The translations under genes were made by a program, and so were the position numbers. A stretch of 64,000 bases of DNA from Corallococcus coralloides. GTDB lineage: Bacteria > Myxococcota > Myxococcia > Myxococcales > Myxococcaceae. The stretch is from the NCBI RefSeq assembly GCF_004104415.1, contig NZ_CP034669.1, one strand, 5' to 3'. Positions within the stretch are counted from its first letter, which is position 1; every line of letters begins with the position of its first letter. Positions 6,513-50,778 of this stretch are shown here, in pieces. The notes under the pieces were generated by a model. That model made no database searches. It was not told the DNA's origin and saw only the letters and a list, made by a program, of their open reading frames with translations.

Positions 6513-8063
6513 TCAGGGGGGAGGAGGCGCGGGGACGGAGCGGGCCGAAGTGGGCTCGCCCAGGATCAACAGAAGCTCCGCGCGGCGGTTCTCGCCCCGC
6601 CCTGCCGGCGTTCCGTTGGAGCCCGCGGGCCGGCGCGCACCGAGACCCCGGGCTTCCAACCGGTGGGCCGGGACGCCCTTTCGCACGAGGTACTCGCGCA
6701 CGGCCTCCGCGCGAGCGAGGGACAGGCGCTGATTGGATGCGGTGGAGCCTTCCGCGTCCGTGTGCCCTTCGATGACGACGCGCTCCACTTCCGGATGCTC
6801 CAACAGCACCCGCGCCACCTGATCCAGGACGCGAGAGCGGCCCGGCAGCGTCGTCGCGCCGACCTCGAAGAAGACCTGGCCATGGAGGACGAGTCGCTCA
6901 CGGGTCAGCGTGACGAGCGAGTCACCAGTCTCCGGGCAGCCGCCGTGCTCTCGGGTTCCCCGCTCGTGGATGCAGGCGTCCAACACGTCCACGACACCAT
7001 CACCATCCGAGTCGGTCTCGGAGACCGGCTCGTCCTTGGCGGGCTCGGGAGGTGGAGGTTCGGAAGGCGTGGGTTCGGGTTCGAGCTGTGGCTCGGCAGG
7101 GGCACGCGGGAGCCCCTGGACCAGCTCGTAGACGATGTCCTCCGGGGGCGGAGGTGGCGGCTTGTCGAAGAGAAGCGCGAAGCCCGCGAGCACCCGGTAT
7201 CGGGGCGCTCCCGGCTCCGCGCCCAGGCCCGCGCCGCCCAACGCGAAGAACTCCCAGGGCCGCGCCGGTGCGTAGCGCAGGCCGCCCAGCAGCTCTCCGC
7301 TGGTGCGCTGCTGCCGCCACGAGTACGCGCCGAGCGCCGACACCTCCGCGCGCAGGGCGTACCCCACCGTCAGTCCCACCCCGGCCCGCAGCTCGTTGCC
7401 CACGCCGTTGAGGCTGTCCACGCCGGAGTCCGTCGAGACGGCGCGACGCAGGAGCACGCCCACTTCCAGCGCCGGAGCCACGGGCCCCCAGCGCTTGCCC
7501 ATCATGATCCGTCCCTGGCCACGGACGCCCTGATCACGCGCGAGTGCGCCCGAACCACCCACGGGCAGCCGGACATCCAGGTCGAGCGCCAGATGGAAGG
7601 CCTCGGGAGCGGAGGTCCCCAGCAGCCCCAGTCGGGCAGCGAGCCGCGGCGCCCCCAGCCCGCTGCGTGACGGCGGGGAGATGGACAGCACGGTGCTCAC
7701 GTCCGCGCCGCTCTGATGGATGACGCCAGGAAGCTGGGCCTGAAGCTCCAGCCAGGGCAGCACGCCGACGGCCAGCGACACCACGCCGGTGGTCCGGGAC
7801 AGGACGAGCGGGTATTCGTCCGGCCCATTGCGGACCGTCAGCGATCTCCGCTGGTAGTGCGCCAGGAGCGAGATGCGCAGCGCGCCGGGCGCCAGCAGCT
7901 CCCCGCTCCCCATCGTCAGGGGCCCCAGGCCCGGGTTCGGGTCCAGGCGCTCCAGGGAGAACGTGGGCAGGGGCGTGGCGTCCTGGGCACGCGCGGGGGT
8001 TGCGAGCAGCAGCAGCCCCAGCGCGGCCCCGCCCACTGCGCATCGGTGCAAGGCCGGACCCAT
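6513..8063 (-). CDS. OmpA-family outer-membrane protein with thrombospondin-type-3-like Asp-rich repeat and Pro-rich linker
   Basis: Signal peptide MGPALHRCAVGGAALGLLLLATPARAQ (start chosen at 8063); DSDGDGVVDVLDAC calcium-binding motif; C-terminal OmpA_C region (TLPGRSRVLDQVARVLLEHPEVERVVIEGHTDAEGSTASNQRLSLARAEAVREYL...NRRAELL). Confidence 0.85.
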   Translation of the reverse strand: MGPALHRCAVGGAALGLLLLATPARAQDATPLPTFSLERLDPNPGLGPLTMGSGELLAPGALRISLLAHYQRRSLTVRNGPDEYPLVLSRTTGVVSLAVGVLPWLELQAQLPGVIHQSGADVSTVLSISPPSRSGLGAPRLAARLGLLGTSAPEAFHLALDLDVRLPVGGSGALARDQGVRGQGRIMMGKRWGPVAPALEVGVLLRRAVSTDSGVDSLNGVGNELRAGVGLTVGYALRAEVSALGAYSWRQQRTSGELLGGLRYAPARPWEFFALGGAGLGAEPGAPRYRVLAGFALLFDKPPPPPPEDIVYELVQGLPRAPAEPQLEPEPTPSEPPPPEPAKDEPVSETDSDGDGVVDVLDACIHERGTREHGGCPETGDSLVTLTRERLVLHGQVFFEVGATTLPGRSRVLDQVARVLLEHPEVERVVIEGHTDAEGSTASNQRLSLARAEAVREYLVRKGVPAHRLEARGLGARRPAGSNGTPAGRGENRRAELLLILGEPTSARSVPAPPPP

Positions 8064-8278
8064 GCGCGCATCATCCGTCAGGTCCCGCCCGGGCTGAAGG
8101 GGAATGGCGGCTGGACTCGCACCTGCGGCTCCCCTCCCCCTCCCGGAAAGACGCTCATGCAAAGGCAGTCATGCGCGGAAACCTTCACGCCTGTGATGAT
8201 TGATGCGGCGGGGTGCCCCGAAGACACCGAGCCAGATATCCTATCAAGGCAGCGCGGACCCAGAACCCAGGAGGGCAC

Positions 8279-8713
8279 ATGCGAGCAGCGATCATCGCAG
8301 GGCTGATGGCTGTCGGGGTGTTGGCGGGATGTGGACGAGAGGACTTGAACCAAGACGAGCAAGGCATCCTGGCGACGCATGAGGCCGCCCTGCCATCCGC
8401 ATCGGAATGTGAAGACACGTGCGAACAACTGCGTGTCGCATGCCTCGACACCGCGGAGAACAGCGCCCAGCGCATGGTGTGTCAGCGCGACTGGCTGGCA
8501 TGCAACGAGGGCTGTGCTTCTTCCAAGGCCGCGATGGCTCCGCCGGACAGCTGTGACCCGTTCGAGGACGACGGCTGGTGTCCTGTGTCCAGCAACAAGA
8601 TCACCTGCTCCAACGGAGTCCAGATGGATGCCCACTGGACTCCGGACGGCTGGTGCATCAACGCGGACGTCTGCAAGAACTACGGCGGCCCCTGGGTCTG
8701 CCCGGAGTGGTGA
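8279..8713 (+). CDS. small Cys-rich lipoprotein, paralog A of a local family
   Basis: AGGAGG 8 nt upstream of ATG; lipobox VLAGC; C-terminal module APPDSCDPxxDDGWC...CSNG...DGWC...CKNYGGPWVC shared with 8719 and 11884 copies. Confidence 0.7.
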   Translation: MRAAIIAGLMAVGVLAGCGREDLNQDEQGILATHEAALPSASECEDTCEQLRVACLDTAENSAQRMVCQRDWLACNEGCASSKAAMAPPDSCDPFEDDGWCPVSSNKITCSNGVQMDAHWTPDGWCINADVCKNYGGPWVCPEW

Positions 8714-8718
8714 GCGCC

Positions 8719-9012
8719 ATGAAACGACAGAAGACGCTTGCACTGGCCTTCAGCGTGGGGATGATGCTCGCCGGCTGTGGACCTGGGGCCGCGCCCGCCA
8801 CGGAGACCGAAACGACCGAGGACCGGGTGCACGCCATGGCACCGCCGGACAGCTGTGATCCGGACATCGATGTCGGCTGGTGCCGGATCACCACGGACCA
8901 GGTCCGCTGCGCGAATGGCTTCTACATGTATGCCTATTTGACGCTGGATGGCTGGTGCAGCCGCTACGACGCCTGCAAGAACCAGGGCGGGCCGTACGTC
9001 TGCGGTCTGTAG
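8719..9012 (+). CDS. small Cys-rich lipoprotein, paralog B
   Basis: MKRQKTLALAFSVGMMLAGCG lipoprotein signal; same 8-Cys C-terminal module (CDPDIDVGWC...CANG...DGWC...CKNQGGPYVC). Confidence 0.7.
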   Translation: MKRQKTLALAFSVGMMLAGCGPGAAPATETETTEDRVHAMAPPDSCDPDIDVGWCRITTDQVRCANGFYMYAYLTLDGWCSRYDACKNQGGPYVCGL

Positions 9013-9059
9013 TCCTGCGTATCCTCGCCTCCCTGCCCTATCATCGGCAGTGAGGTCCA

Positions 9060-11900
9060 ACTGCCGGACAACTCCAGCCTGCACTCGGGCGGCTTGGGCA
9101 TAGAGGTCGCTATGGGAGCAGTCCACATGCGGGAATGCAAAATCAAGGGTGTCACTGGGCTTGGCGCTTGGTACATTGCTACTCACAGGCTGCGGACCTG
9201 AAGAATGGCAGGCGGCCTTGCCTGCAGCACAAGCCTAGAAATTGGCTCACAACGCGAGCACAACAACCCGACCCAACAACAGCCAAAGAACACAACCCAA
9301 AGAGCCAATCCCACCACCAAGACCACCCAACAAAAATCGCCCACCGCTCGAAAACATCACACAAACACACACTCAAAAACCATTCATCAATGACCCTGAC
9401 ACCACACGATGAAGAATCGAATTTCGAAGCCGAAGTAATAAGAATAGCAAGGCAACTTTGGAAGACCGCTGAGTTCGGCGGAAGCCAAATTGAGGACGGC
9501 AGAGAAAGGGATGGTGTTTTCGTCGGAGAAGACACTGTCAATCTCGTCGAATGCACCGTCTCACGCAGAAAAGACAAGGCAGAGAAGGATGTCGGCAAGC
9601 TCATCGACCTGTCGGAAAAATTCCGAAAAACCCACCCCGACAAAGGAATTAAGGCTTGGTTCATCACCCGAGACGAGCCAACCGCAGATCAACGCAGCGT
9701 CGCACAAGCCACACAAAGCCGTGTTATAGCTGTCAGCTTCGACCAGTTTCGGTCTCGGCTAATTGACGCACGCTCCTATATTGATGCTCGAGGCCACTAC
9801 GCATTCGGGAGCATTCGCGATCCAGAGACGGGAAGCACGACCGATCGCACAGAGTATATTCCTCTTGATCTTTTAGCTCGCGAAAGCGGGGCACCACGCA
9901 CAATCAAGGATATTGCCAAAAAAGTCACAACAGGAAGTCGCTTTGTATTGCTGGGAGACTACGGAGCAGGCAAGAGCACCAGCCTAAGAGAAATTTTCTT
10001 TAGCGTAGTCAGCCTATTCAATAACAACAAGTGCCGAGCATTTCCCGTCCACTTGAATTTGCGCGACCACCAAGGCCAAACAAATCCTGCCGAGGCACTT
10101 CTTCGACACGGCACCAACATCGGCATGCCGAACCCCCTGCATCTTGTGCGAGCATGGCGAGCCGGATATGTCGTCGTTCTGCTAGACGGATTCGATGAGA
10201 TTGTAACAGCGGGCTGGGTGGGGCGCAGCAAAAAACTCAAAGAGTGGCGCCACCGCTCAGTCCAACTAATTCGAGAATTCGTCAAATCCACCCCGCCAGA
10301 CATTGGGCTTGTGGTTTCCGGCAGAGAGCATTTTTTTGACAGCACAAAAGAACTCACTGGAGCCCTGAGCACTGGCGAGGGATTTGAGATTTTGACTCTC
10401 AATGAATTCTCCGACGACCAGATCAAGGCATTTCTTGCCAAGAAGGGCTGGTCCGGCCCAGTTCCCGAGTGGCTCCCATCACGACCGCTCCTATTGGGGT
10501 ACCTGGCAGCAAAGGGGCTTTTACAAAAGACTCTTGAAGTAGATGCTGGCTCAAGCCCAGCCGCTGGATGGCATGCATTGCTGGATAGGATTTGTACACG
10601 CGAAGCCGAGATCGAAGCAGGCCTTGACGGGGAGACAATTCGGCGAATAATTGAGCAAATCGCAACAATCGCCAGAAGAGCTACTGATGGCCTTGGGCCC
10701 TTGGGCAGCCAGGACATAGTATCCGCTTTTAGCGAAGTCTGCGGCTATCCTCCCGATGAAATGGCAACGGTGCTTCTGCAACGCCTGCCTGGCCTAGGAG
10801 TTCACTCAGCGGGCGATGAATCCCGCGCGTTTATTGATCGTGACTTTGCGGCTGCGGCCAGGGCGGGCGATATTTTCCGTTATATTGAGGACCCATACTC
10901 CCACTCACTACGAGACCCTCAATCCTGGCAATGTCCGTTTGACGAATTGTCGACACAGGTCACCGCGCTTCGCATATCGGGAGCTCAAATTGACCCCAAG
11001 AAGATCAGCATTGCTACACAGAGAGCTGCCGAGAGCGCGGGGTGGGACATCGCAGCCCTTGATCTGATTCGTACAGGATACGAAGTTGGCGCACCGCGCC
11101 TATCTGGAAAGATGTACATAACAGAAGCATTCGTTTCATCGTTCGAGCTACATGAAGAGGAGACCGTCTGGACTGGAATTGAATTTCAAGATTGCATCTT
11201 CGGCCGATTGACCGTCCCGCCGGAAACCGATCTTGAAGCCTGCCCGCGCTTCGTACGGTGCCATTTCGGAATAGTAGATGGCCTGAATGAGAAAGATGGA
11301 CTTCCCGAAGGTATATTCGAAAACTGTACTTGCGACGCATTCGAGCAAAAAGTCCACACAACGGTAGGACTGCTCAACCTCTCGATCCCACTCGGGTCCA
11401 GAGTATTGCTTACTATCCTCAAGAAGCTTTACATGCAGCGAGGGACGGGCCGAAAGGAGAGCGCACTGTATCGAGGCTTAGATCATCGTGCCCGGCGACT
11501 TGTCCCTGACATTCTTTCGCTACTAGTGAGCGAAGGATTAGTAGTCAAAGCACGCGGAGGTGAACAAGTTGTCTGGCTTCCCGAGAGGTCCCATAGTGGG
11601 CACATTAGGCGGATTTTAGCCTCACCTGAAACCACGACTGACCCTTTGGTTTTGAAGGCAGGTCAGATTGTATGACTAAAAACCATTAACTACCCACATT
11701 TCCATCAGAACGGCCGGCATTTACAGGTGCACCCTGAGAAATCAGGTCGCCATCTGCAGTTTGCACCTGCGCCCCTCACGCCCTGTCAAGCGATATTTGA
11801 TGGGGCTTTATGCTCGACGCATAACCACGCATCGTGCGTACCCCGAGTCCATTCAGAAACCAATGCTTTGACTCCGGTTTCTGCATCGGCCCTGACGGTC
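9060..11900. other. low-GC (about 50%) horizontally acquired island inserted in the Cys-rich lipoprotein paralog array
   Basis: Abrupt base-composition drop versus about 70% flanks; bounded by about 88%-identical copies of the lipoprotein 3' end plus terminator (8850-9065 vs 11890-12130); carries a single large ORF. Confidence 0.7.
9390..11675 (+). CDS. NACHT-like STAND P-loop NTPase with N-terminal Mrr/NERD-like nuclease-fold domain; candidate antiphage defence protein (bNACHT/Avs-like)
   Basis: 761 aa; Walker A VLLGDYGAGKST; Walker B VVVLLDGFDE (NACHT-diagnostic DGFDE); sensor-1-like GLVVSGRE; N-terminal FEAEVIRIARQLW...RERDGVF...VNLVECTVSRRKDK resembles Mrr-cat/NERD; long C-terminal region without recognisable repeats. 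Confidence 0.75.
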   Translation: MTLTPHDEESNFEAEVIRIARQLWKTAEFGGSQIEDGRERDGVFVGEDTVNLVECTVSRRKDKAEKDVGKLIDLSEKFRKTHPDKGIKAWFITRDEPTADQRSVAQATQSRVIAVSFDQFRSRLIDARSYIDARGHYAFGSIRDPETGSTTDRTEYIPLDLLARESGAPRTIKDIAKKVTTGSRFVLLGDYGAGKSTSLREIFFSVVSLFNNNKCRAFPVHLNLRDHQGQTNPAEALLRHGTNIGMPNPLHLVRAWRAGYVVVLLDGFDEIVTAGWVGRSKKLKEWRHRSVQLIREFVKSTPPDIGLVVSGREHFFDSTKELTGALSTGEGFEILTLNEFSDDQIKAFLAKKGWSGPVPEWLPSRPLLLGYLAAKGLLQKTLEVDAGSSPAAGWHALLDRICTREAEIEAGLDGETIRRIIEQIATIARRATDGLGPLGSQDIVSAFSEVCGYPPDEMATVLLQRLPGLGVHSAGDESRAFIDRDFAAAARAGDIFRYIEDPYSHSLRDPQSWQCPFDELSTQVTALRISGAQIDPKKISIATQRAAESAGWDIAALDLIRTGYEVGAPRLSGKMYITEAFVSSFELHEEETVWTGIEFQDCIFGRLTVPPETDLEACPRFVRCHFGIVDGLNEKDGLPEGIFENCTCDAFEQKVHTTVGLLNLSIPLGSRVLLTILKKLYMQRGTGRKESALYRGLDHRARRLVPDILSLLVSEGLVVKARGGEQVVWLPERSHSGHIRRILASPETTTDPLVLKAGQIV

Positions 11901-12086
11901 CGCGCCGTGGAACCACCGACCAACTGTGATCCAGACATCGACGTCGGCTGGTGCCGGATCTCCACCGACCGCGTCCGCTGCGCCAACGGCTTCTACATGT
12001 ATGCCTATTCGACGCCGGACGGCTGGTGCATCCGTTACGACGCTTGTGTCAGCCAGGGCGGACCGTACGTCTGCGGTCTGCAATGA
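11884..12086 (+). pseudogene. 5'-truncated remnant of Cys-rich lipoprotein paralog C (signal peptide lost at island junction)
   Basis: About 88% nucleotide identity to 8850-9012 including stop and downstream hairpin (ccctgccctcacatgggggcaggg); no signal peptide; upstream ATG at 11727 gives a non-secretory leader. Confidence 0.6.
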
Positions 12087-12135
12087 AGTCCTCCTCCCTG
12101 CCCTCACATGGGGGCAGGGAGGTCCCACGGCCCAA

Positions 12136-12987: not shown

Positions 12988-13038
12988 GAGAGCCACCTTA
13001 TGCAAGACTGGCCCGGCACAAGGGAGCGAAGCGAAGGC

Positions 13039-13875
13039 ATGGGCGCGGGAAAAGTTCTCGGGGCGATGTTGGGTCTCATGGCCGGTCTCCTCATGGGAGG
13101 GCCCTGGGCCGTCGTGCTCTCCCTCATCCTGGGCACGGCCCTGGGCCACTACTTCGACGAACAGAACGCCGCGCCCCCGGACTTCCCCGAAATCTTCAGC
13201 GACTTCCCCGTCACCTTCGAGCCGCCTCCCAAGCCGGCCCCCCTCTCCCAGGGCCCGGGCGAGTTCCCCATCATCCAGGCCCCGGACGAGGACCCGCTCG
13301 ACCGCGACATCACCGCCCTCTTCGTGGACGTGGCCCGCGCCGACGGCGACATGCGCCGCGAGGAGGTCCGCGAGGTCCGCCGCTACTTCGAGGAGGTCCT
13401 CCGCGCCGACGCCCACACCGTCCAGGCCGTGCGCCGTTACCTCAAGGACTTCCTCGCCCGCCCCGCCTCCCTGGACGCCCCCGCCGCCCTCGCCTCCTGC
13501 CTGGACTCCCTGCCTTCGGGCGAACGGCTCCGCCTGCTGGACGCGCTCTATGAGATGGCGCTCTCGGACGGCCCCCTCCAGCGCTCCGAACGTGAGGCCC
13601 TGAAGCGCATGGCCGAAGGCCTGGACGTCCCCGACGCCAAGGTCCAGGCCCTGGCCGAACAGCACCTGGGCGACGCCACCGCCCACTACCAGACGCTGGG
13701 CCTCCCCCCGGACGCCACCGACGCGGAGGTGAAGAGCGCCTACCGCAAGCTCGCCGCCCGCTTCCACCCGGACAAGGCCAGCCACCTCGCGCCCAAGGCC
13801 GCCGAGCAGGCCGCCCGCCGGTTCCAGGCTGTCCGCGACGCCTACGAGGAAATCCGCAGGCTGCGCGGCCTGTAG
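13039..13875 (+). CDS. DjlA-like co-chaperone: N-terminal TM segment, TerB-like middle domain, C-terminal J domain
   Basis: Hydrophobic N-terminus [32 protein letters not shown]; C-terminal [32 protein letters not shown]-domain with HPD. Confidence 0.8.
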
Positions 13876-43307: not shown

Positions 43308-43757
43308 TCAGTCCTGTCTCAGTATTGGCTCTTCGTAATCCGCGATGTCTCCAGACGCGACCGCTTCTTCCAGGTATCGCCGAACCTCCTTGAGCGATGC
43401 ATTTTCCGGCACGCTGAGGGCAATCAGTTGATAGGCCGGCAACGACTCGCTCGTGCATCCCAGCCGCTCCAGCGCGGACCTGATGTCAGCAGAATCGACA
43501 TCCTCGGGAACGACAATTCGAATCAACGAATTGTTCGACCTCCCTACGGTGGAGCGATACCAGAGCTGGCCATCCTCTTCAGCGACCTCAATCTCGTCAC
43601 CCAAGGTTGCGTCTCGAACGAAAAAGGGCGTGTTATCCAGGACAAATCGCCCGTTCCCGGATGAACGAGCCCAAAGGCTCTCCACGCCGACTGGAGGATA
43701 CCCATCCTCATCCTGCTCGAGGCGAAAGAAGATTTTCCTGATTTCACTCACGGCCAT
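43308..43757 (-). CDS. cognate immunity protein candidate for the RHS HNH-nuclease toxin
   Basis: 149 aa acidic protein; its ATG overlaps the toxin stop (ccATGgccgTGA = PWP* / MAV); low GC. Confidence 0.6.
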   Translation of the reverse strand: MAVSEIRKIFFRLEQDEDGYPPVGVESLWARSSGNGRFVLDNTPFFVRDATLGDEIEVAEEDGQLWYRSTVGRSNNSLIRIVVPEDVDSADIRSALERLGCTSESLPAYQLIALSVPENASLKEVRRYLEEAVASGDIADYEEPILRQD

Positions 43758-46700
43758 GGATATTTATCACCCTTCTCTCGATTACAATCCCGACACAGGA
43801 CCTGGCCATTCTCTGGCGACCCTTTTCCTCCCTTGGATTCAGGAATCACATGGTCAACTTGGGTTTCATTTCCAGGAGGTCTCACGCCTGACCGGCTCTG
43901 CTGTGAGGGTACTGTTGTAGTGCCGCAGTTTTCGCAAACGGTATCGCCTCCATTTCTGGCCCGATTCTCTTCGACGACTATATCTCTGCCTTTTCGCGTA
44001 AAAGACTTGCCGCTACGGTCCTTTGCTGACGAAAAGACTGCCAGCCCCTTCGTTGCATCAGCCACTCCCTCCGCCCCGACGACCAGCGAACCTGCAACCG
44101 CGGCGGCAGAAACAGCTGCGACAGGCACCCCCACTGCGGCGCCGACTCCTGTGAAGCTGATGGCGCCCCCTATCCCTTCGCCGGCAACTCCACCCACGAA
44201 CATGCCAGCGGCCGCGTAGAGCTCCATCAGGCTGACGGCCCCCATTCCGACACCATAACCACGGTAGAAGTCCTGGGTCTGATCCTCGGGAATCGGCAGC
44301 AGATGCCCTGCCGGGAGCAATCCCGCCATGACGCCCATCAGACCGCCCCCCAGCCCCTGGGTCAGCCGCGTCAGCAACACGTTGACCTCGTCGGGATGAT
44401 AGACGGTCGTTTCGAGCAACGTGATGGACTCGGTGATCTCACCACCCTTCGAATAATCCGTCGACCGGAGGTGACTCTGCTCCAGAGAGGTATAGGACTG
44501 ATCGCCGAAGCGGATCTCCATCGTAACGGGCTCGTAGTTCGGCGAGCGCTCGAAGAGGCCGGGCCCATAGCCTGATGCCGGGCTCCTGCTTACCGGCTCG
44601 GTCCAGTTACTGAAATCGCGGCCAATCTCCGCTCCGTACCAACTGTCGTAGTAGTAGATCAGCTCCATCGACATGAAGCCGGACGGGTCCGTGTAGCGCA
44701 GCGGGTTGTTCAACACATAGCTGTACCGGTTGAACGACTGCCCCCACAAAGGCGCCTGCACCACGGGATCCGGGCTCAGGAAGCGGCCCAGCCTTGGGTC
44801 GTAGATGCGCCCCCGCATGTTCACGAGCTCGAACTCCGAGTCCTGCTCGTGGCCCGTGAAGGAGTGCCGGACCTCGTGCGAGGCCCCCTGCCACTTCAGC
44901 GACAGGTCCAGCGGATGACGCCGCGCTCCGAACGGGTCGTACTTCATCCGGCCCACGACGAGGCCGGCATCGTCAGTCACCGACTCCGTGGAGCCCAGGT
45001 GATCCGAGTGCATGTAGCGCCACTGCTTCTTGATCGCCACGCCCGAAGCAGCCTCGACCCGCCAGGTCACCTCGGCAATCCCCCGCTCCGCCGCGCTCAC
45101 ATGGAATGAATGCGTGACGGCGCCCCCCGGCTCACGGCGCTCCTCGTAGAGACCACCGACATACGTGGTCATCGTCCCATCCGAGTGCCGCTTCACGGTC
45201 CGGGCGTTGTTCGCCGAGTACCGGTACGACACGCTCTGCTGACCGTCCATGATGCGGGAGGGAAGATGGAAGCCCGTGAACTCCACCGTCCGCCCCGGCG
45301 CGGACGTCTGGTTGCCGCTGGCGTCGTAGCCATAGCTCCCCGCCTGAGACCCCGTCAGCGCATGCGGCCCTGCCGGGCCGGCGCCATAGGTGAAAGTCTC
45401 GGACTCGCTCGCCCCCAGGGTGGAGGTCCAGCCCAGCAGGTTGCCCAGATCATCATACGAATAGGATTGGATGGTGTTGCGGCAGTTCTGGACGATGTTC
45501 CATTCGGTCAGCCGGTCCAATCCGTCATAGTGGAAGTCCTCGGTCGTCCTCGCGAGCCGATCATGCCGACTTCTGACATTTCCGTTCGGCTGGTACTCGT
45601 AGGCCAGCTGCTGGAGCGGAACCGTTCCCTTCTGGCTGTCAATGAAGCGCAGCCGGCCCATCGAATCGTAGAGCCGCTGTGTCACCACGCCATTGCCCAG
45701 GCTTTCGGACGTGAGCTGCCCCAGGGCGTTACGCTCCAACACCTTCCACTTCTCACTCAGCGTCTCTAGGTCCCGGACGCTCCGGAGATAGCCTTGAGAG
45801 GTGTATTCATAACCCAGGCGCAATCGCGTCCCCGCGACAGCAGGGTACTCCAGACTCAGTGACCGTCCGTAGGCGTCGTAGCTTCGGTCAATGGCATACG
45901 CGCGCCCCTCCACCAGCCATTGCTCCTGCGTGAGCCTGCCGAGGGTGTCATAGCCATAGGCCACGGCGATGTCGTCCGTGGTCGTCGCCGGATCTCCTTC
46001 ACGTACGCTGCCCATGAGCAGTCCAGGCATACTGGGTCCCTGGGCGGGGGTGTCCCACGTGAAGCGGTCGACTCCATCCCGGCTGCTGGTCACCGTGACC
46101 GGCCGGCCCAGCACATCCCGGACATAGGTCGTCACGACCTGTGACGCATCCTCGGTCCGATCAATCTCTCCCAGGGCCGTGTAGCGGGTGGTGGTCAGGC
46201 CCGAGTCCGGTGTTCGCAGCGAGGTCCGACGCCCGAGCCGGTCGTAGCCCAGGAGCGTTTCGTTCCCCTGGGGATCCAGCACCCGCTGGAGCTGTCCAAA
46301 GGGCCCATACTGATACGTCGACTCCAACCACGGCGCGGTGAACGCCGTCCGCTCCATGCTCTTGATGACCCGGCCATTCACGTCGTTCAAGAAGCGGCGG
46401 GAATTGCCGTTCTCATCGGTGGTGGTGACCTGGAACCCCTCGCGATAGCCGCGGTACCAGGCGCTCGACACCGACCCATCCGGATGGGTCGTCTTGAGCA
46501 GGCGGTTGAGCGGATCATACTGGTAGGCCGTCACCATGCCGGTGGCGCCCCCCTGCGGATCCGGATCGGTCACCTCCACCACCCGTCCCAGGGCATCGAA
46601 CTTCCTCGTGCTGATGGCCTGGGTGCCATTGAACGAGAGCCGGCTCGATCTTACGGACCGCCCCAGGCGGTCATAGTCGACGGTGACGGTCTGCCCTCCC

Positions 46701-49700
46701 GCGACGGACGTCGTCACACGGGTCGTGTAGGCCGTCCCGGCGATGAGCTGCGTGTAATGAACCTCCGTGTCCGACTGATCGGGCGCATCCTCTTTTCGCA
46801 GCCTGCCAAACCCGTCGTATTGCCAGCGCGTCTCGACCCCGCGCTCGTCACGGACTGCGGCCAGCACGCCCAGGCCTCGGTGGTACGCGAATTCCGTGAC
46901 ATGCCCGGCCGCATTGGTGATGGAGGCAGGAAGCCCCCGGTCAAAGGAGTCGTAGGTGATTTGGGTCACCCGGGGAGTCAGGATTCCCGCTCCGCTTCGC
47001 GTCACCCGCGAAGCAAGTCCGTCCCGGGTACGGCCGTAGGTCGTCGTCTGTTCCAGGTTCGGATCGCCTGGTTCGGAGGTCTCGCTCAGGAGGAAACCTG
47101 TCCAGGACTGATACGTCAGGGATTTGCGGCGGGTGACAGTCTGGCCATTGACCGTGCTGGACTCCGTCACCAGGGTCGGCAAACCCACGAGCCAACTTGA
47201 GGGGGAGTTGGAATACTCCGCATGCCATGCGACCTGGTCGCCCCCCACGGTGCTCTGCGTCTTGTCCGTGAGGTTGCCGTAGGTGTCGTCATAGGTCCAT
47301 GAAGTCTGCGTGGTCCGCACGAACGCGGAGGCTGCATTCGGACCAGCCTCGGTAGCGTAGTTCCTCTCAATCTCCGTCCCGTTCACCGGGAAGATGGAGA
47401 GCACCTTCGTGTACGAGACCGTCCCAGGCCGCAGCACCGACCGGTAATGGATCTCCCGCTCGCGCTCCGTGGTCCAGCCATCGAACTGGAGCCGGACACG
47501 CTCACGAATGGGTGTCGCGGCATAGGGATAGAAGGTGTCGACCCGCGTCGTGACGTCGTACTCGGTCCGGGTCTCCGTGCCGGCCTGCACGTCCTGCACC
47601 GTCATCGCCTTGAACCCCAGCCAGCCGCGGCCGGTGACGTCGAACCGTCCGTCCTCGTAGAAGTAGCGCTTGACTCGCACCGGATGCCCCTCCCCCGCGT
47701 CCGTCTGGCTTTCGGCCACCACCCAGTGTCCCTGTCGGGAACAGGTGTTGGGGTACCCGCAGTCCGTTCCGCGAGCATGAACCGTGGTGTCGGAGATGGG
47801 CTTATAGGTGAAGGTGGTGCCGGAGTTCATGCTGTCCTTCACCCCCTTGAGCAGCCCGGGGCGCTGACCATTCTGGCGGTAGACAACCAGCTGGCCATTC
47901 ACGGGCTGGACGAAGTCCGCCAGTCCGTCTCCATTCATGTCCAGCACCTGGGAGAGCTGATTGCGTCGCGTCCCGGCCTCGTCCGACACGGTGATGGCCG
48001 CGAGTTCCTGGGGATCGAAGGAGGTGCCGTTCGACAACAGCAGGACGAATTTCGTCCGGTCCGAGCCCTTCTTGTCCATCAACAGCAGGTCCTGACGCCC
48101 GTCATGGTTGTAGTCGAGGACGCGGACGCCATTGTCATAGTCCCAGGAGCTGAACTTCGCGAAGGCGGGAAGTACCTGGGCCACTGGCGCGGCGAAGCCG
48201 TTGCCAGTGTTCATCATGATTTCAATGTCTCCCCCCGCCACTGGACTCAGGATGGCATCCGGCAGTCCATCCCCATTGATATCGGCGAAGAGGTAGACCT
48301 TCTCGTCGACGGTCGGCAGCAGCAGGGTCGTCTCCGTCTTGACGTAGACGCCATTGCGCTTCTCCAGCGCCCAGAGGCGATTCGACGCGCTGAGGACGAA
48401 TCCGGAGCTGTCCATCACCTTCCGCTCCATCAACAGGCTGCTCCGGGGCAAGCCATCCAGGTTGACCGCGTACTGGATGAAATCGTGCCACTCGCTCGCA
48501 CCGAGAGTGATGGGCTGGAAGGCCCACAGGGTTCCCTGGATGATGGGCCGGAAGGACAACTGCGGATGCCCATTGGGGCCATCCATGGTGATCTGGACAG
48601 GGTTCATCAGGCCGCTTCCGTCCAGATCCGCCAGGAACATCCTCCCGGAGGGTCCCGTGCCCGAGAGTGAGAACCCGTTGCTGCCCCCCACGTAGTTCAT
48701 CATCGTGCGGGGCGGCGTCACCTGACAGCCATCCTTCTTGACGATGCTGACGTCCAGCAGGCCATCCAGGTTGAAGTCGAACCAGCGGCCGTCTTCGCCG
48801 TCAGAGCTGTACCAGCAGGTTTCCGGAAGCACCGTGTTCACGGGCGCGGCGAAGGCGGTGCCGGTGCTCGAGCTGGTCCTCCACTTGTAGAAATACTGGG
48901 TGGACGCAGGGGCCCGGTAGATCAGGTCATCCAGTCCATCCCCATTGACGTCACCCGGCTGGAGGGTCGCGAACTCAGGAATGATGGACGCATCCGTGAT
49001 CTGGGTGTTCACGGTCGTGAAGCTGTTCGCGGGCTGGGTCCATTCGAAGGTCATGGGGCGCTTGCACTTGCCCCCCCCGTCGCATTCCTTGAGCGAGGAG
49101 AGCAGGCTCCTGTCACTGCCTGCCTCCTGGGCATAGGTGAACTCATAGGTCCGCAGCGTGACCTCCTGGCCAACTTCATCGGGCCCGCGCATCTGCAAGG
49201 ATTTGAGCCGTTGGCTGGACTTGATCTTGAAGCCGGCGACATAGGCCGTCCGGATGTCCTTCGCGGGCCGGGTGTCGTACGAAAAATTCACATGGCGCAG
49301 GGAGGCCTGCGCGGCATCCAAACTGCTTGTGTACGTAATGTGGCTCAACACCTGTTCATAGCTGTTGTCCGACGCGTCATACACGATCGGGCCGTAATGG
49401 AAGGCCACCACATTGTCAACGCGGTCGATGATGCTTGTCAGCCCCCAGGAGTACCGGCTCACCGCGGTGTCACGGGTGGTGGCATAGTCCTTTTCATATT
49501 GGGGCCGGACGGCAACGCGGTTTCCCTGAAAGACTGCGTTCGCCTCGATATTGCCGTAGTTGAGGATGCGGCCATCCTTGGCAAGGACGGTGAAAGACTT
49601 AGGACCGTTGGCGTCGGAGCTGTGCGACACGATCTTGGAGAACGTGTCCGTTTCCGTCCGGTACTCCGTGTTCGACGCGCCGTACTGACCATTCACCGCG

Positions 49701-50140
49701 ATCAACTTCTGCCCGTCCAGACAGAACGAGTCCGCCTGGGTGAAGGTCACGGGCATGGACACGCCATCCGCTGCCATGTTCTTCGAACAGCGGGTGATTT
49801 GAGAAAGGCCAGACAAGCTCCAGCCCACCCCCAGGAGCCCGTTCGGCAGGTTGCTGCGATAGCTGAGGGACAAGGACGGTTGGAGGCCCGCCCGCCCCGG
49901 CGGGACCCAGAGGGGAATTGAATAGGTGGCGGAACCGTCTGACCCCACGCCGGCCTGTCCCTGAAGGTTGCCTACCGCGGCGCCGTCCGGCCCTACCTCC
50001 GTGGGCAGCACGGTGCCCGCGGGCACCGACAGCGATTGGCCCTCGGTTCGGAGCAGTTCGCCATCCCGAGGCGAGCCTGGCTCCGTGCGGCCACAGGCCA
50101 TCACCAACGTGAACAATGTCAGGAATACAATGCGATTCAT
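43748..50140 (-). CDS. RHS/YD-repeat polymorphic toxin lipoprotein with SpvB-like N-terminal domain, FG-GAP/VCBS-type repeats, RHS core and C-terminal HNH nuclease domain
   Basis: Lipoprotein signal MNRIVFLTLFTLVMAC; DxNGDGLxD repeats; many YD repeats; RHS core ending YVLNNPLRYTDPSGF (PxxxxDPxGL cleavage motif); C-terminal CENCG...VDHVIPESKGG...NGQVLCRDCNREKG HNH motif. Confidence 0.9.
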   Translation of the reverse strand: MNRIVFLTLFTLVMACGRTEPGSPRDGELLRTEGQSLSVPAGTVLPTEVGPDGAAVGNLQGQAGVGSDGSATYSIPLWVPPGRAGLQPSLSLSYRSNLPNGLLGVGWSLSGLSQITRCSKNMAADGVSMPVTFTQADSFCLDGQKLIAVNGQYGASNTEYRTETDTFSKIVSHSSDANGPKSFTVLAKDGRILNYGNIEANAVFQGNRVAVRPQYEKDYATTRDTAVSRYSWGLTSIIDRVDNVVAFHYGPIVYDASDNSYEQVLSHITYTSSLDAAQASLRHVNFSYDTRPAKDIRTAYVAGFKIKSSQRLKSLQMRGPDEVGQEVTLRTYEFTYAQEAGSDRSLLSSLKECDGGGKCKRPMTFEWTQPANSFTTVNTQITDASIIPEFATLQPGDVNGDGLDDLIYRAPASTQYFYKWRTSSSTGTAFAAPVNTVLPETCWYSSDGEDGRWFDFNLDGLLDVSIVKKDGCQVTPPRTMMNYVGGSNGFSLSGTGPSGRMFLADLDGSGLMNPVQITMDGPNGHPQLSFRPIIQGTLWAFQPITLGASEWHDFIQYAVNLDGLPRSSLLMERKVMDSSGFVLSASNRLWALEKRNGVYVKTETTLLLPTVDEKVYLFADINGDGLPDAILSPVAGGDIEIMMNTGNGFAAPVAQVLPAFAKFSSWDYDNGVRVLDYNHDGRQDLLLMDKKGSDRTKFVLLLSNGTSFDPQELAAITVSDEAGTRRNQLSQVLDMNGDGLADFVQPVNGQLVVYRQNGQRPGLLKGVKDSMNSGTTFTYKPISDTTVHARGTDCGYPNTCSRQGHWVVAESQTDAGEGHPVRVKRYFYEDGRFDVTGRGWLGFKAMTVQDVQAGTETRTEYDVTTRVDTFYPYAATPIRERVRLQFDGWTTEREREIHYRSVLRPGTVSYTKVLSIFPVNGTEIERNYATEAGPNAASAFVRTTQTSWTYDDTYGNLTDKTQSTVGGDQVAWHAEYSNSPSSWLVGLPTLVTESSTVNGQTVTRRKSLTYQSWTGFLLSETSEPGDPNLEQTTTYGRTRDGLASRVTRSGAGILTPRVTQITYDSFDRGLPASITNAAGHVTEFAYHRGLGVLAAVRDERGVETRWQYDGFGRLRKEDAPDQSDTEVHYTQLIAGTAYTTRVTTSVAGGQTVTVDYDRLGRSVRSSRLSFNGTQAISTRKFDALGRVVEVTDPDPQGGATGMVTAYQYDPLNRLLKTTHPDGSVSSAWYRGYREGFQVTTTDENGNSRRFLNDVNGRVIKSMERTAFTAPWLESTYQYGPFGQLQRVLDPQGNETLLGYDRLGRRTSLRTPDSGLTTTRYTALGEIDRTEDASQVVTTYVRDVLGRPVTVTSSRDGVDRFTWDTPAQGPSMPGLLMGSVREGDPATTTDDIAVAYGYDTLGRLTQEQWLVEGRAYAIDRSYDAYGRSLSLEYPAVAGTRLRLGYEYTSQGYLRSVRDLETLSEKWKVLERNALGQLTSESLGNGVVTQRLYDSMGRLRFIDSQKGTVPLQQLAYEYQPNGNVRSRHDRLARTTEDFHYDGLDRLTEWNIVQNCRNTIQSYSYDDLGNLLGWTSTLGASESETFTYGAGPAGPHALTGSQAGSYGYDASGNQTSAPGRTVEFTGFHLPSRIMDGQQSVSYRYSANNARTVKRHSDGTMTTYVGGLYEERREPGGAVTHSFHVSAAERGIAEVTWRVEAASGVAIKKQWRYMHSDHLGSTESVTDDAGLVVGRMKYDPFGARRHPLDLSLKWQGASHEVRHSFTGHEQDSEFELVNMRGRIYDPRLGRFLSPDPVVQAPLWGQSFNRYSYVLNNPLRYTDPSGFMSMELIYYYDSWYGAEIGRDFSNWTEPVSRSPASGYGPGLFERSPNYEPVTMEIRFGDQSYTSLEQSHLRSTDYSKGGEITESITLLETTVYHPDEVNVLLTRLTQGLGGGLMGVMAGLLPAGHLLPIPEDQTQDFYRGYGVGMGAVSLMELYAAAGMFVGGVAGEGIGGAISFTGVGAAVGVPVAAVSAAAVAGSLVVGAEGVADATKGLAVFSSAKDRSGKSFTRKGRDIVVEENRARNGGDTVCENCGTTTVPSQQSRSGVRPPGNETQVDHVIPESKGGKGSPENGQVLCRDCNREKGDKYPWP

Positions 50141-50223
50141 TGATTCGCCTGAAGAAGCAGCTTGAAAAGGAAACGCATGCGGGTCACGCATGGAAGACAT
50201 TCGCACGGTACGCTCGGGCTCGT

Positions 50224-50778
50224 TCACGACTCGGAGCCACCGGGGTTGCAGGAGATTCCCGGGCACAGGCGGTTCGTGTTGCACGAACCATCACAGCACT
50301 TGTACTGCCCCTGCGGGCACGCGGGCGGAGGCGGCGTGACACACTGGCCATTCGTGCACGTATCACCCTGGGAGCAGGTGCCACACTGAAGGGTTCCCCC
50401 GCAGCCATCCGAGGCCGGGCCACACGTCACCCCGAGGTCGGCGCAAGTCATTGGGGCACATTGGCACACATTGTCCGCGCAAGCGATTCCGGAACCGCAG
50501 GTGCCACAGTTCAACCACGCGCCACACCCATCCGGCATGGCCCCACAGTTCTTGCTCAACCCCTGGCAGGTGAATGGCGCACAGCTGCAGGCGAGGTCAC
50601 TCGTGCGGCAGACGTCGTCTTCGTCCACCCACCCGTCGCAATCATCATCCCGGCCATTGCAGACCTCCGCCGCGGGAGTACAAGCCGCGTCCGCTGTCGA
50701 AGGCACTACGAGCCCGACCGCCAACCACGCCACAGTCAGGAGCCACACCCAGCGAAGCGGCTTCGTGAGAATCGTCAT
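50224..50778 (-). CDS. secreted cysteine-rich repeat protein with MopE-like CNGxDDDCDGxVDE metal-binding motif
   Basis: Signal peptide MTILTKPLRWVWLLTVAWLAVGLVVPSTADA; about 36 Cys in 184 aa in CxxxTCxxLGxxCGxxxDGCGxxLxCGTC repeats. Confidence 0.7.
   Translation of the reverse strand: MTILTKPLRWVWLLTVAWLAVGLVVPSTADAACTPAAEVCNGRDDDCDGWVDEDDVCRTSDLACSCAPFTCQGLSKNCGAMPDGCGAWLNCGTCGSGIACADNVCQCAPMTCADLGVTCGPASDGCGGTLQCGTCSQGDTCTNGQCVTPPPPACPQGQYKCCDGSCNTNRLCPGISCNPGGSES

Follow-up and report, generated by a model that had tools for sequence, protein, structure and literature searches.

The gene analysed here lies in a 64,000-nt window of the Corallococcus coralloides contig NZ_CP034669.1 and encodes a protein of 761 amino acids (aa) that combines a predicted restriction endonuclease (REase)-fold domain with a NACHT module (all positions below are those of the window). 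The coding sequence occupies positions 9390..11675 of the + strand, stop codon included. It is the only gene of a low-GC island (9050..11890), whose composition profile, at about 52% GC, departs from that of the chromosome (about 70% GC). An earlier note, made from the DNA sequence alone, had described a 761-aa open reading frame (ORF) at 9390-11675, and nr indeed contains an identical full-length entry, WP_164933303.1, annotated as 'NACHT domain-containing protein [Corallococcus coralloides]'.

The start of the gene is annotated in two ways. The mechanical ORF list gives one long ORF at 9135..11675 on the + strand, and GenBank entry QAT86316.1 (846 aa) starts at ATG 9135, running through the 5' leader, while the RefSeq start is ATG 9390. 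The best 120 homologues are nearly all 746-771 aa long and cover 98-100% of the 761-aa protein. Since the homologues support the 761-aa form, the shorter start is preferred: ATG 9390 is correct, and the 846-aa GenBank form is probably over-extended.

The NACHT nucleotide-binding domain (NBD) spans residues 184-340 (9939..10409, + strand), as delimited by Pfam PF05729, invariant motifs and Foldseek. The PF05729 profile matches residues 185-351 with 33.3 bits at a gathering cut-off of 26.7, and 31/31 aligned family members match it as well. The Walker A motif (9954-9977, G189..S196; G189-D-Y-G-A-G-K195-S-T) fits GxxxxGK[ST]. The Walker B region (10173-10199, residues 262-270) carries D266-G-F-D-E270, which starts 71 residues after K195 and fits D[GAS]hDE, the signature that separates NACHT from other STAND NTPases at Walker B according to Kibby et al. 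(10.1101/2022.07.19.500537). The sensor-1 R312 (10323-10325) is found in G-L-V-V-S-G-R312-E, after strand 307-312. The Walker A motif, the DGFDE signature about 70 residues further on and the sensor-1-like GLVVSGRE had all been pointed out in the earlier note; both Walker motifs are intact and invariant, and neither the 113 homologues from metagenomes nor the 78 genome-derived relatives (29-50% identity) deviate at K195, D266, D269, E270 or R312. In terms of its motifs, the central module is a live NACHT NTPase.

The AlphaFold2 model of the 761-aa protein, built on 113 homologues, has a predicted local distance difference test score (pLDDT) of 88.1 and a predicted template-modelling score (pTM) of 0.83. 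In the Foldseek search of the full model against PDB the matches are NOD2 (E 2.4e-11), NLRP3, NLRC4, NLRP9, NAIP5, Avs4 (8.4e-10) and Avs3, followed by Cdc6/Orc and Apaf-1; the alignments to the NLR and Avs structures span 500-790 columns. Judged by the profile score, the invariant DGFDE and these NLR-like matches, the protein is a NACHT-clade STAND NTPase with a predicted NLR-like overall fold and intact NTPase motifs, as had been proposed.

The helical and winged-helix part of the NACHT module follows at residues 341-483 (10410..10838, + strand), assigned from the secondary structure of the model and from the hhalign alignment with bNACHT25, an antiphage protein of E. coli discussed below. 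It contains the conserved motifs P-S-R-P-L-L-L and R-L-P-G-L-G, with helices modelled at 342-464 and a beta-hairpin at 469-481. In many NACHT and NB-ARC proteins a histidine of the winged-helix domain (WHD), equivalent to NLRC4 H443, contacts the nucleotide; this residue is characteristic but not strictly defining. No conserved histidine is present in residues 341-500 (10410-10889) in 79 sequences of the family, and a near-invariant D483 follows the WHD beta-hairpin. The equation of the bNACHT25 motif F-L-H-R-S-F with F481-I-D483-R-D-F, that is, a His-to-Asp replacement, is not supported, as MAFFT sets the histidine opposite a gap and the local alignment scores 20 versus a shuffle mean of 19.3.

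The N-terminal domain (residues 1-135; 9390..9794, + strand) is a putative nuclease effector with the PD-(D/E)xK, or restriction-endonuclease, fold, as indicated by the model and by conservation. The AlphaFold2 models show helix 5-23, strands 32-35/38-41, 43-45 and 49-56, helix 61-81, strand 86-93, helix 99-106 and strand 112-116, and this order of elements is the alpha-beta-beta-beta-alpha-beta core of the restriction-endonuclease fold. In the structure comparison (scores in parentheses) the nearest neighbours are the R.BspD6I small subunit (9.1), VC1899 (8.8), Can2 (8.2 and 8.1), NucS (8.1), NgoMIV (8.0), FokI (7.9), CdiA-CT toxins (7.5) and McrC (6.9), and further down Shedu SduA (6.8), HamA (6.5) and Avs4 (5.9). 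Foldseek, an independent method, finds the same neighbours, with N.BspD6I at E 5e-4 (prob 1.00) and Avs4 at E 4.9e-3 (prob 0.99), as well as Can2, Cdn1, Card1, XisH and MspJI.

By sequence the domain could not be placed in any known family. The earlier note had called it Mrr/NERD-like; the nuclease fold is retained, but neither family is. Mrr_cat (PF04471) was rejected, as the isolated domain of the window protein has no match at E<=10, and the best family score is 16.1 bits, obtained by 1/31 members, at a cut-off of 21 (for the control, the bNACHT25 N terminus, the score is 22.4 bits). NERD (PF08378) was rejected as well, with no match in the window protein, in 31 members (E<=0.1) or in nine isolated N-terminal domains (E<=10). 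The one recurrent signal comes from Card1_endonuc (PF09002), with sub-threshold matches across the catalytic strands in 9/31 members (best 19.9 bits, cut-off 26.4) and none in the window protein itself. Nothing was found in the profile search of the domain against PDB sequences, and hhalign detects no relationship between it and the bNACHT25 nuclease domain. In the predicted structure the N-terminal domain thus belongs to the PD-(D/E)xK superfamily at the fold level, and by sequence it is unclassified.

The putative catalytic core is encoded at 9504..9578 (+ strand) and comprises E39-R-D41, E54-C-T56 and K63, to which E13 of helix 1 (9426-9428) is added. D41 is located just before strand 2, E54 and T56 in strand 3, and K63, D67 and K70 in helix 2. 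Conservation in 79 sequences (29-50% identity) is nearly absolute: E39 and D41 are present in 79/79, E13, E54 and T56 in 78/79, K70 in 77/79, K63 and D67 in 76/79, so that the acidic residues looked for together with the nuclease fold are indeed found. A homologue from an Erwinia plasmid (29% identity) keeps the pattern D ... E-x-T ... K(+9) ... D(+13) ... K(+16).

The catalytic lysine, normally two residues after the strand-3 acid, is absent, and T56 takes its place in 78 of the 79 sequences; that the canonical (D/E)xK lysine was not obvious (ECT) had been correctly observed from the window sequence. A precedent is provided by Pa4535 (PDB 1y0k), in which, according to Steczkiewicz et al. (2012; PMC3424549), the lysine has 'migrated' to the second core helix, yielding 'PD-EXX-K', with a helix-1 Glu often completing the site. 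By comparison of motifs, K63 on helix 61-81 could likewise substitute for the missing E-x-K lysine, giving the predicted arrangement D41/E54-x-T56/K63. Pa4535 is a precedent for the geometry of the active site only, not for homology. A working, metal-dependent nuclease site is favoured over a decayed one because four acidic residues and the helix-2 lysine are near-absolutely conserved.

The C-terminal region consists of two parts that evolve differently. Residues 484-655 (10839..11354, + strand) form a modelled helical bundle (484-566) and a beta-rich module with short paired strands (575-651); this segment is the most variable part of the family (entropy 2.2-2.6 bits) and the candidate sensor surface. 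In particular, the column entropy of residues 500-620 is 2.3-2.6 bits, compared to 1.35-1.46 for the REase, NBD and WHD parts. By far the most variable, these residues are read as the likely sensor surface. The remaining module (residues 656-745; 11355..11624, + strand) is basic and, with an entropy of 1.44, as conserved as the enzymatic parts; K679, G685, R688 and G696 are invariant. Its modelled elements (helices 668-681, 690-694, 699-702 and 705-714, strands 718-723 and 726-732, helix 733-744) follow the order H-H-H-beta-beta-H, and from this predicted secondary structure the module may be tentatively assigned as winged-helix-like. It appears to be a conserved functional element and may bind DNA.

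As had been noted before, TPR, WD and LRR repeats are absent from the C-terminal region. No Pfam family matches the C-terminal ~280 aa in ten diverse members at E<=10, and no NCH1, TPR, LRR, WD40 or pentapeptide match was found in the window protein or in 31 members. A pentapeptide-repeat reading of residues 575-655 (F-Q-D-C-I-F-G-R-L..., R-F-V-R-C-H-F-G) was rejected, as 31 members and ten C-terminal segments have no Pfam match to it; hhalign to a pentapeptide-repeat protein yields a probability of 4% over 13 columns.

The family is not peculiar to myxobacteria. At least 1221 matches at E<=1e-3 were obtained among the candidates scored, and the best 120 are all full-length, with 45-60% identity. 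In a scan with one genome per species, 99 relatives belong to Acidobacteriota, Chloroflexota (including Dehalococcoidia), Planctomycetota, Actinomycetota (many Streptomyces), Pseudomonadota, Bacteroidota, Spirochaetota, Verrucomicrobiota, Nitrospirota, Gemmatimonadota and Myxococcota. Such a patchy distribution over more than ten phyla is typical of horizontal transfer. Moreover, three relatives are found on IMG/VR viral contigs, and one, with an integrase and a RelE/Phd pair as neighbours, is carried by an Erwinia plasmid.

The neighbourhoods of eight family loci contain no conserved partner gene, consistent with the description of the window gene as a stand-alone island. Restriction-modification (RM) genes adjoin two of the eight loci, in one case an RM gene of the Eco57I type, close to which transposases and an AAA_15/21 ATPase are encoded, in the other a pair of a type III-like methyltransferase and ResIII; transposase genes are nearby in four. 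A toxin-antitoxin pair (DUF433/DUF5615) adjoins one locus, and another pair is about 5 kb away in a second one; one locus lies inside an element with integrase, resolvase and AlpA. These neighbourhoods are compatible with a defence gene, but do not constitute a strong defence-island signal.

In the plasmid of Erwinia persicina (NZ_CP146502.1) the homologue (29% identity) occupies 8866-11103, with the integrase and the RelE/Phd pair downstream. A gene for a 191-aa pentapeptide-repeat protein (7487-8062) lies about 800 bp upstream; no sequence relationship was found between its product and the beta-rich module of the NACHT protein.

At the window locus, the island is embedded in ordinary chromosomal genes, encoding an Ig-repeat protein, an OmpA-family protein, small Cys-rich lipoprotein paralogues, FolD, a TerB-DnaJ protein, Smr, adenosine deaminase and dihydroorotate dehydrogenase (DHODH). 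No tRNA gene or integrase marking the island was found in the scan of the locus and its flanks, and sigma-70 promoter and terminator scans gave nothing exceeding the shuffled expectation. A direct repeat of about 200 nt, 85% identical, brackets the island (repeat families D1, D2). The left copy (8826..9047, + strand) contains the 3' end of a small Cys-rich lipoprotein gene and the sequence downstream of it; the right copy (11897..12112, + strand) lies inside a 5'-truncated paralogue without a signal peptide. The flanking repeat of Cys-rich paralogues suggests that the NACHT gene was inserted into a tandem paralogue array or replaced a part of it. The REase-NACHT gene is intact and horizontally acquired.

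There are three paralogous small Cys-rich ORFs within 8213-9012 and 11727-12086, two of them with signal peptides of the lipoprotein type (…LAGC). In the third, which follows the island immediately, the conserved C-terminal 60 aa are retained but the signal peptide is missing, so that it looks 5'-truncated. None of these ORFs has a Pfam match.

Upstream of the gene there is an A/C-rich 5' leader of 150 nt (9240..9389, + strand; 83% A+C), in which no Shine-Dalgarno sequence is evident ahead of ATG 9390. The leader (A 0.44, C 0.39, G 0.09, T 0.07) looks like CA/CAA repeats. As a regulatory element of the family the leader was rejected: in 77 homologue loci the A+C fraction of the equivalent stretch does not exceed 0.61 (median 0.50), and since the leader is absent from these loci, it is confined to the window copy.

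The closest functional precedents are the E. coli proteins bNACHT25 and bNACHT32 (clade 6 of Kibby et al.), which have a PD-(D/E)xK effector and in which D48A abolishes defence (10.1101/2022.07.19.500537; PMC12169576); their defence depends on the nuclease, infection leads to degradation of DNA, and sensing by bNACHT25 requires the host chaperone DnaJ (PMC12169576). For comparison, a DNA fragment given in the supplement of the paper was used to locate bNACHT25 (WP_001702659.1, 752 aa) in an E. coli genome. The likeness extends to the N-terminal PD-(D/E)xK nuclease, the central NACHT, the non-repeat C terminus of about 280 aa, the size (752 and 761 aa), the single-gene organization and the location on mobile DNA. 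On the other hand, only the NACHT cores are detectably homologous (hhalign probability 64%, E 6.6e-5, residues 182-450), and clade-14 bNACHT02 (90%, E 1.7e-6) is at least as close in this core. The bNACHT25 nuclease passes the Mrr_cat cut-off and has the canonical lysine (I-C-K), in contrast to E-C-T plus K63 in the window family, and the C-terminal domain of bNACHT25 is NCH1 (PF22728, 132 bits), with no such domain in the window protein or in ten family C-terminal segments. Since the nucleases show no relationship in sequence and the NACHT core is no closer to bNACHT25 than to bNACHT02, the nuclease-NACHT fusion may have arisen independently of bNACHT25.

The bNACHT25 gene itself (E. coli NZ_CP091756.1, 4001-6259) lies in a Rac-like prophage segment, with ydaT, ydaV, DUF1627 and DUF977 genes upstream and IS3 downstream. 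In some genomes the protein is annotated just as 'hypothetical protein', and PADLOC-DB 2.0.0 has no model that recognises it.

Avs4 (PDB 8dgf) is likewise a STAND NTPase with an N-terminal effector of the restriction-endonuclease fold, Mrr-like in Avs4, and 8dgf is matched by the full model as well as by the model of the N-terminal domain on its own; activation by oligomerisation, known for Avs4, may apply here by analogy. Unlike the window protein, which is half its size and repeat-free, Avs4 has about 1540 aa and binds the phage portal through a large TPR-like sensor, and the window protein matches no Avs model of PADLOC. Can2, Card1 and VC1899 (PF09002), together with the cleavage domains of N.BspD6I, R.BspD6I and FokI, resemble the N-terminal domain structurally, but there a CARF or a DNA-recognition domain, and not a NACHT, governs the nuclease; the sequence identity is 12-20%, the Pfam scores do not exceed 19.9 bits at a cut-off of 26.4, and in the window family the lysine is not at E-x-K. 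Finally, NA-iREase1 (PF22722) is an REase-fold domain N-terminal to bacterial NACHT; unlike in this inactive domain, the catalytic positions of the window family are still occupied by invariant acidic residues.

Taken with these precedents, the domain identities, the intact NTPase motifs, the conserved nuclease-type site, the lack of a partner gene and the horizontal acquisition are best read as those of a single-chain, NLR-related antiphage sensor-nuclease of the bacterial NACHT type, and we regard this function as probable. The antiphage role proposed in the earlier note is plausible, being assigned by analogy with bNACHT25/32 and Avs4; the claim that the combination is undescribed was overstated, because the same REase-NACHT architecture has been experimentally validated as antiphage in bNACHT25/32 and Avs4.

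By the same analogy, the trigger, oligomerisation, substrate and outcome may be pictured as follows. The NACHT module would keep the resting protein monomeric and inactive until, in an infected cell, a trigger engages the variable C-terminal region (residues about 484-655). The NACHT modules would then bind or exchange nucleotide and oligomerise, bringing the N-terminal PD-(D/E)xK nuclease domains together. The assembled domains would degrade DNA of the phage, the host or both, and phage replication would stop, probably at the cost of the life of the infected cell. The closest folds (FokI, BspD6I, Can2, Card1) cleave non-specifically and have to dimerise or be activated allosterically, and therefore fit activation by induced proximity, as in Avs4 (PDB 8dgf).

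Several observations weigh against the sensor-nuclease function. Nuclease activity is not certain, because the canonical catalytic lysine is replaced by threonine (T56). Weak matches to 'NACHT-associated inactive REase 1' (NA-iREase1) occur in 2/31 members (E 0.001-0.04), with at most 19.2 bits at a cut-off of 27, and cover only profile positions 55-98, outside the catalytic strands. The gene lies among housekeeping genes in at least three of the eight loci and in the window itself (the surroundings are purely housekeeping in two or three of the eight), and the link to defence islands is only moderate. In PADLOC-DB 2.0.0, which includes Avs1-5 and other defence families, no model matches the window protein, the search yielding only P-loop noise (mad3 at E 0.012, PtuA at E 0.039); this says little, because PADLOC 2.0.0 fails to recognise bNACHT25 too. 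No experimental evidence for the family of the window protein was found in the literature.

The conserved terminal module allows for a different function, that of an NTP (nucleoside triphosphate)-dependent restriction-like nuclease. Here, the winged-helix-like module 656-745 would bind DNA, recognising foreign or modified DNA or loading the enzyme, and the NACHT NTPase would license cleavage by the N-terminal domain; no phage protein would be sensed, and cell death would not be required. The terminal 90 residues equal the catalytic domains in conservation and contain, besides the invariant K679 and R688, many other basic residues, which is unlike a diversifying protein sensor. The predicted H-H-H-beta-beta secondary structure of the module agrees with this function, as do the type IIS and modification-dependent enzymes among the nearest nuclease folds (BspD6I, FokI, MspJI, McrC) and the RM genes next to two of the eight loci. 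Still, ten members have no Pfam helix-turn-helix (HTH) match at E<=10, so that the winged helix is a reading of predicted secondary structure, and the adjacent region 500-620 diversifies in the way a STAND sensor does. Moreover, characterised NACHT and Avs defence proteins all sense proteins or host-mediated signals (PMC13581612; PMC12169576). On balance, a restriction-like enzyme seems rather unlikely. Similarly, we consider unlikely a separate NLR-like lineage that acquired the nuclease-NACHT design independently of both bNACHT25 and Avs4 and has a migrated-lysine site (D41/E54-x-T56/K63), in which nucleic acid would be sensed via the terminal and beta-rich modules and the protein would act as an NTP-gated restriction-like switch.

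If the REase-fold domain were dead and served in DNA binding or oligomerisation, the protein could be a non-defence STAND signalling protein or transcription regulator with a winged-helix-like output, following the logic of MalT; STAND regulators carrying a terminal HTH exist. The missing E-x-K lysine with the invariant T56 in its place, the partial NA-iREase1 matches and the frequent location of the gene among housekeeping genes point in this direction. But a dead domain would hardly account for the near-invariance of four acidic residues and K63 over more than ten phyla, the NA-iREase1 matches leave the catalytic strands out, and no conserved neighbouring target operon is present. Furthermore, the patchy distribution, the horizontal transfer and the presence on viral contigs and a plasmid are typical of an accessory conflict gene. 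A regulator is highly unlikely. Barely credible is a selfish or addictive mobile nuclease gene, homing-endonuclease- or toxin-like and not protecting the host: the lone 2.8-kb insert with no integrase and an 85% direct repeat at both sides, and lone insertions between housekeeping genes in other phyla, would suit it, but the repeat consists of host paralogue sequence and does not represent a target-site duplication, a homing enzyme would not be expected to be a large, regulated STAND switch whose NTPase is intact and whose C-terminal region diversifies, and the neighbourhoods examined contain no cognate antitoxin or immunity gene.

With the antiphage sensor-nuclease as the preferred function, the window gene is a reasonable antiphage candidate, not a new kind of system. 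Already known are the sensor-NACHT-nuclease logic, validated in other lineages, the annotation of the protein as NACHT, and the family beyond myxobacteria. New at the subfamily level are the unclassified nuclease domain with its predicted migrated lysine and the unclassified C-terminal module, for which no experimental test was found in the literature. Among prokaryotic proteins, the bacterial NACHT proteins are the relatives of the inflammasome receptors of animals, and only a handful of their clades have been tested so far. The family is large, multi-phylum and compact (about 757 aa), its architecture is rigid, its structure is predicted with confidence and its sensor region is unclassified, so that it would be a tractable system for finding a new phage trigger. 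It would also let the activity of a PD-(D/E)xK site with Thr at the position of Lys be tested. A positive result would extend, not change, current understanding, because the overall logic of sensor, NACHT and nuclease is already established.

Two other loci of the window may be mentioned. The gene of the TerB and DnaJ-domain (DjlA-like) protein is located at 13000-13872 (+ strand), 1.3 kb downstream of the island; since the island flanks are native chromosome, its closeness to the NACHT gene is most likely coincidental. The second region of lower GC content, at 43748-50284 (- strand), encodes a 2178-aa polymorphic toxin of the Rhs/TcdB/SpvB type, which contains FG-GAP and RHS repeats and ends in an HNH nuclease tip at the C terminus. 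The kilobase with the lowest GC content (43-44 kb, GC 0.55) corresponds to the toxin tip at the 3' end of the gene and the sequence just downstream, where the immunity gene for this toxin would be expected.

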